Assembly: GCF_003018235.1 (NCBI RefSeq)
Contig: NZ_CP027437.1
DNA: 64,000 nucleotides
Direction: 5' to 3' (one strand)
From: Escherichia coli
GTDB taxonomy: Bacteria; Pseudomonadota; Gammaproteobacteria; Enterobacterales; Enterobacteriaceae
The translations under genes were made by a program, and so were the position numbers. Positions 23,829 through 52,836 of this stretch are shown in pieces (positions within the stretch are counted from its first letter, which is position 1; each line of letters begins with the position of its first letter). Under the pieces are notes generated by a model. That model made no database searches, was not told the DNA's origin, and saw nothing but the letters and a program-made list of their open reading frames with translations.

Positions 23829-24267
23829 ATTATTCTGTCTTATTAATTGAAAATTATTTCTCGCTTTATTATCCATGCGGCAATAATGTTTTGTGTTTAG
23901 ATAACCTGCTAAATAATTAAGATCGTGAGAACATCTATTTTTTATCACGCGAAACAAGTCTGTACTAATTATGTTCGCTTGATGAGCAAACACCGTTCTA
24001 TCTGTTGCTTTTGCAATCTTAATCGTTAAAACTACCAACGAATTTATATAGTTACGTTGTGAAAAGTTGTTAATTTTTTGTTTAATGAAATTTCGTAAAA
24101 ATCACCAGCCAGACATCGAATAGGGGTTATTCTTATAAATTTCACCTGCTTTGCTATCAATGATGCCGTTTTATTAAGAATGGAGGAAGTTATTAGAGAA
24201 GATAAAGCATAAAACTATTTCTCCCAGTTACGAATTTTTTAACATTGTTTTGTCACTTGCGTTATTA
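23829..24267. promoter_or_regulatory. AT-rich upstream region of sslE/yghJ; probable promoter of the sslE-pppA-yghG-gsp transcription unit
   Basis: ~440 bp of AT-rich non-coding DNA upstream of the first gene of a co-directional, closely packed cluster. This operon is reported to be H-NS silenced. Confidence 0.45.
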
Positions 24268-27200
24268 ATGAATAAGAAATTTAAATATAAGAAATCGCTT
24301 TTAGCGGCTATTTTGAGCGCAACCCTGTTAGCCGGTTGTGATGGCGGTGGTTCCGGATCTTCCTCCGATACGCCGCCTGTAGATTCTGGAACAGGGTCTT
24401 TGCCGGAAGTGAAACCTGATCCAACACCAAACCCGGAGCCGACGCCTGAGCCAACGCCGGACCCAGAACCTACGCCGGAACCGACACCTGATCCTGAGCC
24501 AACACCAGAACCGGAGCCAGAACCTGTTCCTACGAAAACGGGTTATCTGACCCTGGGCGGAAGCCAGCGGATAACTGGTGCTACTTGTAATGGTGAATCC
24601 AGCGATGGCTTTACCTTTACGCCAGGCGACAAAGTCACCTGTGTGGCAGGGAACAACACGACAATTGCTACCTTCGACACCCAGTCAGAAGCTGCGCGTA
24701 GCCTGCGTGCGGTTGAAAAAGTGTCGTTTAGTCTTGAGGATGCGCAAGAACTGGCGGCTTCCGATGACAAGAAAAGCAATGCGGTTTCGCTGGTAACGTC
24801 CAGTAACAGCTGTCCGGCGAATACAGAACAGGTTTGCCTGTCGTTCTCCTCTGTGATCGAGAGTAAACGTTTCGACTCACTGTATAAGCAAATCGATCTG
24901 GCACCGGAAGAGTTCAAAAAGCTGGTCAATGAAGAGGTGGAAAACAATGCTGCGACCGATAAAGCGCCATCCACTCATACCTCACCGGTTGTGCCTGTCA
25001 CCACGCCGGGAACAAAACCGGATCTGAACGCTTCCTTCGTGTCGGCTAACGCGGAACAGTTTTATCAGTATCAACCTTCGGAAATCATTCTCTCCGAAGG
25101 CCGACTGGTCGATAGCCAGGGATATGGTGTTGCTGGCGTCAACTACTACACCAATTCAGGCCGTGGCGTGACAGGGGAAAATGGTGAATTTTCCTTTAGC
25201 TGGGGCGAAACCATCTCCTTTGGTATCGATACCTTTGAACTGGGTTCAGTGCGCGGCAATAAGTCGACCATTGCGCTGACTGAACTGGGTGATGAAGTTC
25301 GCGGGGCGAATATTGATCAGCTTATTCATCGCTATTCGACGACCGGGCAAAATAATACCCGTGTTGTTCCGGACGATGTACGCAAGGTCTTTGCCGAATA
25401 TCCCAACGTGATCAACGAGATTATCAATCTCTCGTTATCCAACGGTGCGACGCTGGATGAAGGTGAGCAAGTTGTTAATCTGCCAAACGAATTTATTGAG
25501 CAGTTTAAGACGGGTCAAGCCAAAGAGATCGATACCGCGATTTGTGCGAAAACCGACGGTTGTAACGAGGCTCGCTGGTTCTCGCTGACGACGCGCAATG
25601 TTAATGACGGCCAGATTCAGGGCGTTATCAACAAGCTGTGGGGCGTGGATACGAACTACAAATCTGTCAGCAAGTTCCATGTATTCCATGACTCTACCAA
25701 CTTCTATGGCAGCACGGGTAATGCGCGCGGTCAGGCGGTGGTGAATATCTCCAACGCGGCCTTCCCGATTCTGATGGCGCGTAATGATAAAAACTACTGG
25801 CTGGCGTTTGGCGAAAAACGCGCCTGGGATAAAAACGAGCTGGCGTACATTACGGAAGCGCCTTCTCTTGTTGAGCCGGAAAACGTTACGCGCGATACCG
25901 CCACCTTCAACCTGCCGTTTATCTCGTTGGGGCAAGTCGGCGATGGCAAGCTGATGGTTATCGGTAACCCGCACTACAACAGCATTTTGCGTTGTCCGAA
26001 CGGTTACAGTTGGAACGGAGGCGTTAATAAAGACGGGCAGTGTACGCTCAGCGGTGATTCAGATGACATGAAGAACTTCATGGAGAACGTGCTGCGCTAT
26101 CTGTCAAATGATCGCTGGTTGCCGGATGCAAAATCCAATATGACCGTAGGCACCAACCTGGATACTGTCTATTTCAAACGTCATGGTCAGGTTACAGGAA
26201 ACAGCGCTGAGTTCGGCTTCCATCCGGATTTTGCGGGTATCTCCGTTGAGCATTTAAGTAGCTATGGCGATCTCGACCCGCAGGAAATGCCGCTGCTGAT
26301 CCTCAACGGCTTTGAGTATGTGACTCAGGTGGGGGGCGATCCTTATGCAATCCCGCTGCGTGCAGATACCAGCAAACCGAAGCTGACTCAGCAGGATGTG
26401 ACCGATCTGATCGCCTATCTGAACAAAGGTGGATCGGTGCTGATCATGGAAAACGTGATGAGCAATCTTAAGGAAGAGAGCGCGTCTGGTTTTGTGCGTC
26501 TGTTGGATGCTGCAGGTCTGTCAATGGCACTGAACAAGTCGGTGGTGAATAACGATCCTCAAGGGTATCCGAACCGCGTTCGTCAGCAGCGCGCAACGGG
26601 CATTTGGGTCTATGAACGTTATCCTGCCGTAGACGGTGCGCTGCCGTACACCATCGATAGTAAGACAGGGGAAGTTAAGTGGAAATATCAGGTAGAAAAC
26701 AAACCTGATGACAAACCGAAGCTGGAAGTTGCCAGCTGGCTGGAAGATGTAGATGGCAAACAGGAAACGCGTTATGCCTTTATTGATGAGGCCGATCATA
26801 AAACAGAGGATTCTCTGAAGGCTGCGAAGGAGAAAATTTTCGCGGCGTTCCCGGGGCTGAAAGAGTGTACTAATCAGGCATATCACTACGAGGTCAACTG
26901 TCTGGAATATCGTCCTGGCACGGGGGTTCCGGTTACTGGTGGCATGTATGTTCCACAGTATACGCAACTAAGCCTTAACGCCGACACGGCAAAAGCGATG
27001 GTGCAGGCTGCGGATTTAGGCACCAACATTCAGCGTCTGTATCAGCATGAGCTCTACTTCCGGACCAATGGTCGCAAAGGTGAGCGTCTGAGCAGCGTCG
27101 ATCTGGAACGTCTGTACCAGAACATGTCGGTCTGGCTGTGGAACGATACGAGCTATCGTTATGAAGAAGGCAAAAATGACGAGCTGGGCTTTAAAACGTT

Positions 27201-28830
27201 CACCGAGTTCCTGAACTGCTATACCAACGATGCCTATACCGATGGCACACAGTGCTCCGCAGATCTGAAAAAATCGCTGGTCGATAACAACATGATCTAC
27301 GGTGACGGTAGCAGCAAAGCGGGCATGATGAACCCGAGCTATCCACTCAACTATATGGAAAAACCGCTGACGCGCCTGATGCTGGGCCGTTCCTGGTGGG
27401 ATCTGAACATTAAGGTTGATGTGGAGAAGTACCCAGGAGCGGTATCTGTAGGGGGAGAAGAGGTTACTGAAACCATCAGCCTGTACTCGAATCCGACCAA
27501 ATGGTTTGCAGGTAACATGCAGTCAACTGGCCTGTGGGCACCGGCTCAGAAAGAGGTCACCATTAAGTCCAATGCGAACGTTCCTGTGACCGTCACCGTG
27601 GCGCTGGCTGACGACCTGACCGGAAGAGAGAAGCATGAAGTCGCGCTGAACCGTCCGCCAAGAGTAACCAAAACGTACTCTCTGGACGCTAGCGGTACGG
27701 TGAAGTTCAAGGTGCCTTACGGTGGCCTGATTTATATCAAGGGCAATAGCTCTACCAATGAATCTGCCAGCTTCATCTTTACTGGCGTGGTAAAAGCACC
27801 GTTCTATAAAGACGGCGCATGGAAAAACGATCTGAACTCACCGGCTCCGCTGGGTGAGCTGGAATCAGACGCTTTCGTCTATACCACACCGAAGAAGAAC
27901 CTGAATGCCAGCAATTACACGGGCGGACTGGAGCAATTCGCTAACGATCTGGATACCTTTGCCAGCTCGATGAATGACTTCTACGGTCGTAATGATGAAG
28001 ACGGTAAGCACCGGATGTTTACCTATAAAAACTTGACGGGCCACAAGCATCGTTTCACCAACGATGTGCAGATCTCCATCGGTGATGCGCACTCGGGTTA
28101 TCCGGTAATGAACAGCAGCTTCTCGACGAACAGCACCACGCTGCCGACGACGCCGCTGAACGACTGGCTGATCTGGCACGAAGTTGGTCACAACGCCGCC
28201 GAAACGCCGCTGACTGTTCCTGGCGCAACTGAAGTAGCGAACAACGTGCTGGCGCTGTACATGCAGGATCGCTATCTCGGCAAGATGAACCGTGTCGCTG
28301 ACGATATTACTGTCGCGCCGGAATATCTGGAGGAGAGCAACGGTCAGGCATGGGCGCGCGGCGGTGCGGGTGACCGTCTGCTGATGTACGCGCAGCTGAA
28401 GGAGTGGGCAGAGAAAAACTTTGATATCAAACAGTGGTATCCAGAAGGCTCTCTGCCAGAGTTCTACAGCGAGCGTGAAGGGATGAAAGGCTGGAACCTG
28501 TTCCAGTTGATGCACCGTAAAGCGCGCGGCGATGAGGTTGGCAATAACAAGTTCGGCAGTAAGAACTACTGTGCTGAATCTAACGGTAACGCTGCCGACA
28601 CGCTGATGCTGTGTGCCTCCTGGGTCGCCCAGACGGATCTTTCGGAGTTCTTTAAGAAATGGAATCCGGGCGCGAATGCTTACCAGTTGCCGGGAGCGAC
28701 GGAGATGAGCTTCGAAGGCGGTGTGAGCCAGTCGGCTTACAACACGCTCGCGTCACTCGATCTGCCGAAACCGAAGCAAGGGCCGGAAACCATTAATAAG
28801 GTTACCGAATATTCGATGCCTGCTGAATAA
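24268..28830 (+). CDS. sslE: SslE/YghJ secreted lipoprotein, M60-like zinc metalloprotease (mucinase)
   Basis: 1520 aa from MNKKFKYKK; lipobox LLAGC; proline-rich PEPTPD repeats; zinc motif HEVGH at 28177-28191. Confidence 0.9.
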   Translation: MNKKFKYKKSLLAAILSATLLAGCDGGGSGSSSDTPPVDSGTGSLPEVKPDPTPNPEPTPEPTPDPEPTPEPTPDPEPTPEPEPEPVPTKTGYLTLGGSQRITGATCNGESSDGFTFTPGDKVTCVAGNNTTIATFDTQSEAARSLRAVEKVSFSLEDAQELAASDDKKSNAVSLVTSSNSCPANTEQVCLSFSSVIESKRFDSLYKQIDLAPEEFKKLVNEEVENNAATDKAPSTHTSPVVPVTTPGTKPDLNASFVSANAEQFYQYQPSEIILSEGRLVDSQGYGVAGVNYYTNSGRGVTGENGEFSFSWGETISFGIDTFELGSVRGNKSTIALTELGDEVRGANIDQLIHRYSTTGQNNTRVVPDDVRKVFAEYPNVINEIINLSLSNGATLDEGEQVVNLPNEFIEQFKTGQAKEIDTAICAKTDGCNEARWFSLTTRNVNDGQIQGVINKLWGVDTNYKSVSKFHVFHDSTNFYGSTGNARGQAVVNISNAAFPILMARNDKNYWLAFGEKRAWDKNELAYITEAPSLVEPENVTRDTATFNLPFISLGQVGDGKLMVIGNPHYNSILRCPNGYSWNGGVNKDGQCTLSGDSDDMKNFMENVLRYLSNDRWLPDAKSNMTVGTNLDTVYFKRHGQVTGNSAEFGFHPDFAGISVEHLSSYGDLDPQEMPLLILNGFEYVTQVGGDPYAIPLRADTSKPKLTQQDVTDLIAYLNKGGSVLIMENVMSNLKEESASGFVRLLDAAGLSMALNKSVVNNDPQGYPNRVRQQRATGIWVYERYPAVDGALPYTIDSKTGEVKWKYQVENKPDDKPKLEVASWLEDVDGKQETRYAFIDEADHKTEDSLKAAKEKIFAAFPGLKECTNQAYHYEVNCLEYRPGTGVPVTGGMYVPQYTQLSLNADTAKAMVQAADLGTNIQRLYQHELYFRTNGRKGERLSSVDLERLYQNMSVWLWNDTSYRYEEGKNDELGFKTFTEFLNCYTNDAYTDGTQCSADLKKSLVDNNMIYGDGSSKAGMMNPSYPLNYMEKPLTRLMLGRSWWDLNIKVDVEKYPGAVSVGGEEVTETISLYSNPTKWFAGNMQSTGLWAPAQKEVTIKSNANVPVTVTVALADDLTGREKHEVALNRPPRVTKTYSLDASGTVKFKVPYGGLIYIKGNSSTNESASFIFTGVVKAPFYKDGAWKNDLNSPAPLGELESDAFVYTTPKKNLNASNYTGGLEQFANDLDTFASSMNDFYGRNDEDGKHRMFTYKNLTGHKHRFTNDVQISIGDAHSGYPVMNSSFSTNSTTLPTTPLNDWLIWHEVGHNAAETPLTVPGATEVANNVLALYMQDRYLGKMNRVADDITVAPEYLEESNGQAWARGGAGDRLLMYAQLKEWAEKNFDIKQWYPEGSLPEFYSEREGMKGWNLFQLMHRKARGDEVGNNKFGSKNYCAESNGNAADTLMLCASWVAQTDLSEFFKKWNPGANAYQLPGATEMSFEGGVSQSAYNTLASLDLPKPKQGPETINKVTEYSMPAE
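24409..24525 (+). repeat. In-frame tandem repeat encoding a proline-rich PEPTP(D/E) linker in SslE
   Basis: Repeated ccngaacc(n)acnccn units encoding PDPTPNPEPTPEPTPDPEPTPEPTPDPEPTPEPEPEP. Confidence 0.7.
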
Positions 28831-49713: not shown

Positions 49714-50433
49714 ATGATGCGCAAAATGCTGCTGGCGGCAGCACTTTCAGTGACGGCAATGACCGCTCACGCCGACTACCAGTGCAGCGTCACGCCGCGT
49801 GACGATGTGATTGTCAGCCCGCAAACCGTGCAGGTGAAGGGCGAAAACGGCAATCTGGTGATCACGCCAGACGGCAACGTGATGTATAACGGTAAGCAAT
49901 ATTCCCTGAATGCCGCCCAGCGCGAGCAGGCGAAGGATTATCAGGCTGAACTGCGTAGCACCCTGCCGTGGATTGATGAAGGCGCGAAAAGCCGCGTCGA
50001 AAAAGCCCGTATTGCGCTGGATAAAATTATCGTTCAGGAGATGGGCGAAAGCAGCAAAATGCGCAGCCGTCTGACCAAACTTGATGCGCAGCTGAAAGAG
50101 CAGATGAACCGCATTATCGAAACGCGCAGCGATGGCCTGACGTTCCACTATAAAGCCATTGATCAGGTTCGCGCCGAAGGCCAGCAATTAGTGAATCAGG
50201 CAATGGGCGGAATTTTACAGGACAGCATTAATGAAATGGGCGCGAAAGCGGTGCTGAAAAGCGGTGGTAACCCATTACAGAATGTGCTGGGAAGCCTGGG
50301 CGGTCTGCAATCCTCAATCCAAACCGAATGGAAAAAGCAGGAAAAAGATTTCCAGCAGTTTGGCAAAGATGTTTGTAGCCGCGTTGTGACTCTGGAAGAT
50401 AGTCGCAAAGCCCTGGTCGGGAATTTAAAATAA
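49714..50433 (+). CDS. yggN: DUF2884 periplasmic protein YggN
   Basis: 239-aa ORF with signal peptide (MMRKMLLAAALSVTAMTAHA). Confidence 0.85.
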   Translation: MMRKMLLAAALSVTAMTAHADYQCSVTPRDDVIVSPQTVQVKGENGNLVITPDGNVMYNGKQYSLNAAQREQAKDYQAELRSTLPWIDEGAKSRVEKARIALDKIIVQEMGESSKMRSRLTKLDAQLKEQMNRIIETRSDGLTFHYKAIDQVRAEGQQLVNQAMGGILQDSINEMGAKAVLKSGGNPLQNVLGSLGGLQSSIQTEWKKQEKDFQQFGKDVCSRVVTLEDSRKALVGNLK

Positions 50434-50537
50434 TCCTCTATTTTAAGACGGCATAATACTTTTTTATGCCGTTTAATTCTTCGTTTTGTTACCTGCCTCT
50501 AACTTTGTAGATCTCCAAAATATATTCACGTTGTAAA

Positions 50538-50551
50538 TTGTTTAACGTCAA
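50538..50551 (+). promoter_or_regulatory. Candidate FNR-type site in the ansB promoter
   Basis: TTGTT-TAAC-GTCAA matches the FNR consensus TTGAT-N4-ATCAA at 8 of 10 positions, ~55 bp upstream of the ansB start. ansB is known to be anaerobically induced via FNR and CRP. Confidence 0.4.
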
Positions 50552-50608
50552 ATTTCCCATACAAAGCTAAGGGATAATGCGTAGCGTTCACGTAACTGGA
50601 GGAATGAA

Positions 50609-51655
50609 ATGGAGTTTTTCAAAAAGACGGCACTTGCCGCACTGGTTATGGGTTTTAGTGGTGCAGCATTGGCATTACCCAATATCACCATTTTAGCAAC
50701 CGGCGGGACCATTGCCGGTGGTGGTGACTCCGCAACCAAATCTAACTACACAGCGGGTAAAGTTGGCGTAGAAAATCTGGTTAATGCGGTGCCGCAACTG
50801 AAGGACATTGCGAACGTTAAAGGCGAGCAGGTAGTGAATATCGGCTCCCAGGACATGAACGATAATGTCTGGCTGACACTGGCGAAAAAAATTAACACCG
50901 ACTGCGATAAAACCGACGGCTTCGTCATTACCCACGGTACCGACACGATGGAAGAAACCGCTTACTTCCTCGACCTGACGGTGAAATGCGACAAACCGGT
51001 GGTGATGGTCGGCGCAATGCGCCCGTCCACGTCCATGAGCGCAGACGGTCCATTCAACCTGTATAACGCGGTAGTGACCGCAGCTGATAAAGCCTCCGCT
51101 AATCGTGGCGTGCTGGTGGTGATGAACGACACCGTACTGGACGGTCGCGATGTCACCAAAACCAACACCACCGACGTAGCGACCTTCAAGTCTGTTAACT
51201 ACGGTCCTCTGGGTTACATTCACAACGGTAAGATTGACTACCAACGTACCCCGGCACGTAAGCATACCAGCGACACGCCGTTCGATGTCTCTAAGCTGAA
51301 TGAACTGCCGAAAGTCGGCATCGTTTATAACTACGCTAACGCATCCGATCTTCCGGCTAAAGCACTGGTAGATGCGGGCTATGATGGCATCGTCAGCGCT
51401 GGTGTGGGTAACGGTAACCTGTATAAATCCGTGTTCGACACTCTGGCGACCGCCGCGAAAAACGGCACTGCAGTCGTGCGTTCTTCCCGCGTACCGACGG
51501 GCGCTACCACTCAGGATGCTGAAGTGGATGATGCGAAATACGGCTTCGTCGCCTCTGGCACGCTGAACCCGCAAAAAGCGCGCGTTCTGCTGCAGCTTGC
51601 TCTGACGCAAACCAAAGATCCGCAGCAGATCCAGCAGATCTTCAATCAGTACTAA
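50609..51655 (+). CDS. ansB: Periplasmic L-asparaginase II
   Basis: 348-aa ORF with signal peptide and catalytic N-terminal motif ILATGGTIAG. Confidence 0.9.
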   Translation: MEFFKKTALAALVMGFSGAALALPNITILATGGTIAGGGDSATKSNYTAGKVGVENLVNAVPQLKDIANVKGEQVVNIGSQDMNDNVWLTLAKKINTDCDKTDGFVITHGTDTMEETAYFLDLTVKCDKPVVMVGAMRPSTSMSADGPFNLYNAVVTAADKASANRGVLVVMNDTVLDGRDVTKTNTTDVATFKSVNYGPLGYIHNGKIDYQRTPARKHTSDTPFDVSKLNELPKVGIVYNYANASDLPAKALVDAGYDGIVSAGVGNGNLYKSVFDTLATAAKNGTAVVRSSRVPTGATTQDAEVDDAKYGFVASGTLNPQKARVLLQLALTQTKDPQQIQQIFNQY

Positions 51656-52778: not shown

Positions 52779-52796
52779 CTCATGTTAAGTGCCTTT

Positions 52797-52836
52797 GCCG
52801 GATAATATAAAAAGTTATCCGGCAAATTATTTTTTA
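52797..52836. terminator. Bidirectional terminator between yggM and the TRAP operon
   Basis: Perfect 9-bp inverted repeat gccggataa / ttatccggc followed by aaattatttttt. Confidence 0.65.

Follow-up and report, generated by a model that had tools for sequence, protein, structure and literature searches.

The predicted FNR operator of the ansB promoter in an Escherichia coli strain, compared with related Enterobacteriaceae

The ansB promoter of E. coli K-12 has reportedly been studied by Jennings and Beacham (1990 and 1993) and by Scott, Busby and Beacham (1995). Jennings and Beacham (1993) are said to have carried out a mutational analysis and to have placed FNR at -41.5 and CRP at -91.5, and the published mapping reportedly includes a second FNR-like sequence near -74.5 that is of little importance. 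The Salmonella ansB promoter is said to owe its activation to a pair of CRP dimers rather than to FNR (reports attributed to Jennings, Scott and Beacham in 1993 and to Scott and coworkers in 1995), with CRP reportedly acting at the proximal dyad.

Co-activation of ansB by FNR and CRP is also described in the genome-wide literature (PMC3688515). The gene was classed as "Activated" by FNR in two of three transcriptome data sets, and its aerobic/anaerobic expression ratio was 0.107 (Myers 2013, Tables S8, S10 and S12; PMC3688515). In the same source the FNR site lies at -41.5 ± 4 in 19 of 23 directly FNR-activated promoters. No FNR ChIP-seq peak was found upstream of ansB in glucose minimal medium, which the authors blame on the growth conditions, and ansB was placed among the FNR-dependent operons without a peak (PMC3688515). 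It is also a known CRP target that was not recovered by genomic SELEX (Shimada et al. 2011). For Salmonella ansB, crp alone is tabulated as a regulator (PMC11000858).

We studied a window of 64,000 nucleotides from E. coli (NCBI RefSeq assembly GCF_003018235.1, contig NZ_CP027437.1), in which an initial annotation had noted an FNR-like site upstream of ansB. Our best explanation, to which we assign a probability of roughly 0.93, is that FNR activates the E. coli ansB promoter from a class II operator at positions 50538-50551. The sequence, the matrix score, the geometry relative to the conserved -10 element, the conservation and the identity with K-12 come from this analysis; the binding of FNR and CRP, the exact transcription start and the co-dependence come from the literature or are inferred. 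The feature is ordinary and intact in this strain and is almost certainly already known.

Layout of the ansB control region

The elements of the region are listed below in order along the window, with distances counted from the inferred transcription start.

50446-50474, plus strand: strong intrinsic terminator of yggN, 11 pairs followed by a T-run (terminator scan)
50487-50502, no strand assigned: distal CRP-like site TGTTACCTGCCTCTAA (TGTTA-CCTGCC-TCTAA), centre 50494.5, about -91.5
50505-50518, no strand assigned: second FNR-like dyad TTGTAGATCTCCAA (TTGTA-GATC-TCCAA), about -74.5, probably not functional
50538-50551, no strand assigned: predicted FNR-binding dyad, class II, about -41.5, overlapping the -35 region
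50573-50578, plus strand: -10 hexamer GATAAT of the ansB promoter, without a recognizable -35
50585-50586, plus strand: inferred transcription start, from the position of the -10; 5' UTR of about 23-24 nt
50596-50600, plus strand: Shine-Dalgarno sequence GGAGG, 8 nt before the ATG, read from the sequence
50609-51655, plus strand: ansB, periplasmic L-asparaginase II, 348-aa precursor (ORF list and annotation)

Read on the plus strand, 50538-50551 is TTGTTTAACGTCAA, or TTGTT-TAAC-GTCAA, with its dyad centre at 50544.5, and the letters agree exactly with those given in the initial annotation. A pattern search for TTGTT-N4-GTCAA returned this single occurrence across the 64-kb window. The distance of about 55 bp from the start of ansB was roughly right, there being 57 nt between the 3' end of the motif and the ATG at 50609; the centre of the motif lies 64.5 nt upstream of the ATG. 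The gene had been correctly named as ansB: it is annotated as L-asparaginase 2 in matching genomes, and 346 of the 348 residues of its product are identical to those of the K-12 protein. The description of the site as FNR-like is borne out by the two half-site cores, both of the FNR type (TTGT and TCAA), and by the position of the centre near -41.5 from the inferred start. The claim that the regulatory region is intact also stands, in that the CRP-like partner, the -10 element, the Shine-Dalgarno sequence and the upstream terminator are all in place. The distal CRP-like site at 50487-50502 was left unmentioned in that annotation, which had pointed out only the FNR site.

The hexamer GATAAT is the only sequence between the dyad and the ATG that matches TATAAT at five or more of six positions. 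With a start at 50585-50586, the centre of the dyad falls at -40.5 to -41.5 and that of the distal block at -90.5 to -91.5; a start at 50586 gives -41.5 and -91.5 exactly, and it reproduces the reported position of -74.5 as well. Counted from the inferred start, the dyad would thus be centred about 41.5 (±1) bp upstream, which is the position of a class II FNR site. We take 50538-50551 to be the FNR site mapped in K-12, on the basis of the reported coordinates and the exact geometric fit.

The centres of the distal CRP-like block and the FNR dyad are exactly 50 bp apart, the CRP-like block being the upstream one. A scan for CRP sites had also been proposed. The distal block agrees with the consensus for CRP at 7 of 10 positions; taken alone this is at chance level, with 192 such matches in the window where 212 are expected. 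Our putative assignment of 50487-50502 to CRP draws on the literature.

The yggN terminator insulates ansB, which therefore needs its own promoter. A consensus promoter scan of the interval from yggN to ansB gave no complete sigma-70 promoter; an activator would thus be needed, as expected for an activator-dependent promoter. The transcription start supplements of Kim 2012 contain no entry for ansB. We rejected the second dyad at 50505-50518 as a functional site, given its score of -10.8 bits on the FNR matrix described below and its lack of conservation: columns 50507, 50512 and 50516 vary within Escherichia, and the change at 50507 destroys the TTG core.

Under the FNR operator reading, the oxygen sensor FNR, as a [4Fe-4S] dimer, would bind TTGTT-N4-GTCAA in the absence of oxygen, about 41.5 bp upstream of the start, where it would overlap and replace the missing -35 element and contact RNA polymerase. 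At a distance of 50 bp, or about five helical turns, on the upstream side, cAMP-CRP would occupy a weak site near -91.5, and the two proteins would jointly recruit RNA polymerase, so that full transcription of the asparaginase II gene would need both anaerobiosis and the absence of glucose. Because the FNR site is a weak match, the promoter would also need cAMP-CRP upstream. The weakness of both sites fits their reported co-dependence, and it fits their escape from genomic assays of single factors, in which FNR was tested in glucose medium and CRP with naked DNA. The view of the site as consistent with the known anaerobic induction of asparaginase II is supported, with the qualification that the site alone does not account for induction, co-dependence on CRP having been described for this promoter.

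Like canonical class II FNR promoters such as those of narG, nirB, dmsA, nrfA and ydfZ, the ansB promoter has a site of the form TTGx / TCAA, which would be centred near -41.5, and no usable -35 element. It differs from them in that its site is at the weak end, in that no ChIP peak was found in glucose medium, and in its reported reliance on CRP bound upstream.

Strength of the FNR match

Judged by mismatch count, the bare motif is at chance level. There are 36 matches to TTGAT-N4-ATCAA with at most two mismatches in the window, compared with 32 ± 6 expected, and 12 of 100 shuffles contained one or more copies of the exact motif TTGTT-N4-GTCAA. The ansB motif matches the FNR consensus at 8 of 10 positions; in its left half-site a T stands where TTGA has the important A.

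For a finer measure we used a symmetrized FNR matrix made from the 63 ChIP-seq-bound sites of Myers 2013 (Table S6; PMC3688515), in which 5 of the 126 half-sites also have T at that position of the TTGA. The matrix scan that the initial annotation had proposed favours its assignment: the ansB motif scores 12.65 bits, ranking third among 63,987 window positions (p = 1.75e-5 per position). At that score, chance would supply 1.1 sites per 64 kb but about 0.003 in the 175-bp intergenic region upstream of ansB, where no other FNR position has a positive score. The 63 bound sites score from 11.95 to 21.55 bits with a median of 15.5, which puts the ansB site within their range and near the bottom; 4 of the 63 are as low. 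It is not listed in the genome matrix scan of Myers 2013, which used a stricter cut-off of ln p <= -10.75 (PMC3688515).

The two best matches to the matrix in the window are at 27727-27740 and 52886-52899 (14.3 and 14.2 bits). The first lies inside a 1526-aa ORF (24250-28830) and the second inside the ORF of a TRAP permease; both are intragenic, and we took them as chance matches. They show that good FNR-like sequences arise by chance.

From its sequence, the ansB motif is a weak but plausible FNR site that must earn its credibility from context, and the significance of the site comes from its position and conservation and not from the motif alone.

Comparison of ansB upstream regions in three genera

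Searching with a degenerate DNA pattern that encodes a conserved AnsB peptide, we found 20 loci, 17 of which had alignable upstream regions, and the aligned set consisted of 18 sequences from Escherichia, Citrobacter and Salmonella. The Escherichia sequences include those of E. albertii, E. whittamii, two cryptic-clade genomes and a same-clade "E. coli". TTGTTTAACGTCAA is unchanged in the six Escherichia lineages, while its flanks vary. Among these lineages 21 of 133 columns vary, all of them outside the 36 columns that make up the FNR site, the CRP-like site and the -10 element (hypergeometric P = 7e-4). For the 14 bp of the FNR site alone, conservation within Escherichia is not significant (P = 0.08). 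All 18 aligned sequences share, without change, the ATAAT of the -10 element and the CTGGAG of the Shine-Dalgarno sequence.

Escherichia sp. E1V33 and "E. coli" SCPM-O-B-8794 both have a 1-nt insertion at 50502/50503, giving a spacing of 51 bp between the distal and proximal centres in place of 50 bp.

The ansB promoters of Salmonella and Citrobacter share the architecture and the spacing of the E. coli promoter, with no indels. Three blocks occur at fixed spacing in the three genera: TTTTG.TA...CTCTAA, the proximal dyad and ATAAT. In the distal block the half-site sequences TTTTG.TA and CTCTAA are conserved in all three genera and the central bases are variable. The stem of the yggN terminator retains its pairing in Citrobacter and Salmonella through compensatory substitutions. 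In ten Citrobacter genomes the arms of the proximal dyad are fixed around a hypervariable central N4 (ACTC, TGGC, TGCC, TTGC, CAAT and ATGC), and such a variable center between fixed arms is the pattern that dimer binding would be expected to leave.

The arms themselves differ among the genera, being TTGTT/GTCAA in Escherichia, TTGGA/GTCAC in Citrobacter and TCGTA/(G/A)TCAC in Salmonella. The right half of the proximal dyad in Salmonella and Citrobacter is thus of the CRP type, unlike the TCAA of Escherichia. On the FNR matrix the proximal dyad scores 12.65 bits in Escherichia as against -9.4 to +0.1 in Citrobacter and Salmonella, so that a good FNR-type site at this position is specific to Escherichia among the genera compared, in agreement with the reported activation of Salmonella ansB by CRP and not FNR. 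The proximal activator site could conceivably have been re-specified within the Enterobacteriaceae, from one kind to the other between the FNR-type site of Escherichia and the CRP-type right half of Citrobacter and Salmonella, although we regard this as a tentative and rather unlikely proposal. If true, it would be a compact natural case of regulatory rewiring through a few base changes. The contrast between E. coli and Salmonella ansB was reportedly already published in 1993-1995, so that only the wider phylogenetic picture would be new.

These comparisons bear directly on whether the proximal dyad in E. coli could itself be a CRP site, with anaerobic control coming from elsewhere. CRP and FNR recognize related dyads, and the outer bases of the core discriminate between them, being T...A for FNR (TTGA / TCAA) as against GTGA / TCAC for CRP. 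In Escherichia both of these bases are of the FNR type, and the core TTGT...TCAA matches FNR at 7 of 8 positions and CRP at 5 of 8. A CRP site is made more credible by the TCAC(A), a perfect CRP right half-site, that occupies the same position in Citrobacter and Salmonella, and by the missing FNR ChIP peak at ansB. Set against this are the matrix score, far above the 0.1 bits or less of the other genera, the FNR-dependence of ansB in two of three transcriptomes and the naming of FNR as a co-activator in the literature, and we consider it very unlikely that the Escherichia dyad is a CRP site.

A second alternative is that the motif is a functionless chance match and that the FNR-dependence of ansB is indirect or acts through another site, such as TTGTAGATCTCCAA at 50505-50518. 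The chance frequency of two-mismatch matches, the expectation of about one site at this matrix score per 64 kb and the two better-scoring intragenic matches are all consistent with this, as are the lack of a ChIP peak and the placement of ansB in the Myers category of FNR-dependent operons without one. A chance match would, however, have to be the one FNR position with a positive score in the 175 bp of the promoter region, lie where a class II site should be relative to the single conserved -10 element and exactly five helical turns from the conserved distal block, and remain invariant across Escherichia species while its flanks vary. The other site named, moreover, has the negative score given above and a TTG core that is not conserved. 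We therefore give this alternative very little weight. That the dyad is bound by another regulator or is part of an RNA or structural element is more improbable still, as nothing speaks positively for it, no Rfam match was found in 50300-50750 at E <= 1, the motif is upstream of the inferred start and so would not be transcribed, and the dyad arms pair at only 3 bp.

This case illustrates that motif matching alone is insufficient for calling weak, co-dependent activator sites. The FNR site and the CRP-like site are both chance-level matches to their consensus sequences, yet they can be recognized by geometry and phylogenetic footprinting.

Variation among E. coli genomes

The gene order mutY / trmB-yggL-yggN-ansB-yggM is the same in this strain as in K-12. 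A comparison with the K-12 promoter had been suggested along with the matrix scans, and it found the proximal dyad, the distal block, the -10 element and the Shine-Dalgarno sequence to be identical at the same locus. The 175-bp upstream region differs from that of K-12 MG1655 only at 50564 (A here, G in K-12), which is outside the motif. The other differences from K-12 are V49A and T285N in AnsB (precursor numbering) and a TRAP transporter cluster downstream of yggM in this strain. The textbook control region of ansB is thus preserved in an E. coli strain other than K-12, a result of little import beyond annotation. With the control region intact, anaerobic growth without glucose should induce asparaginase II in this strain as it does in K-12.

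Of 5426 complete E. coli genomes, all but one (5425) contain the ansB upstream region. The 31-mer containing the FNR site (50530-50560) is exact in 5179 of the 5426, a spacer control (50503-50533) in 5209 and the 31-mer of the CRP-like segment (50479-50509) in 5405, so that at the population level the FNR-site 31-mer is conserved no better than the spacer control. The motif itself was directly confirmed as exact in 5343 of the 5425 genomes (at least 98.5%), leaving 82 others. For about 71 of these 82 (1.3% of the 5425), the arithmetic of the counts implies one SNP within 50533-50551. Cryptic-clade flank haplotypes were tried for the 82 and gave no match. We also scanned metagenome contigs using the flanks as anchors, with the motif and 5 bp of its left flank left free, and found the exact motif in 62 of 62.

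The variants that were sampled all lie outside the 14 bp: 50529T, 50531G, 50552T (143 genomes), 50555C (21 genomes), 50561G (the CFT073 type) and 50564G. The A/G polymorphism at 50564 is in the spacer between the -35 and -10 regions, at about -22, and G is present in 20 of the 62 metagenomic E. coli contigs. The flank polymorphisms 50552T and 50564 A/G, which segregate in E. coli, might tune the proximal activator site.

In strain 23CRST024 the ansB upstream region aligns only from window position 50491 onward, and there are two matching places in the record. This suggests an insertion or rearrangement that would break the CRP-like site. Of the 5433 matches to 50434-50608 in complete E. coli assemblies, two fall on sequence records with a plasmid classification.

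The TRAP transporter cluster (52834-55669, minus strand) consists of three ORFs of 433, 170 and 328 aa between yggM and hemW, and its annotation in matching genomes includes a large permease and a substrate-binding protein. In K-12 and in strain 503025, hemW directly follows yggM without the TRAP cluster. Coverage of at least 80% of 52779-60000 was found in only 1463 of the 5426 complete E. coli genomes.
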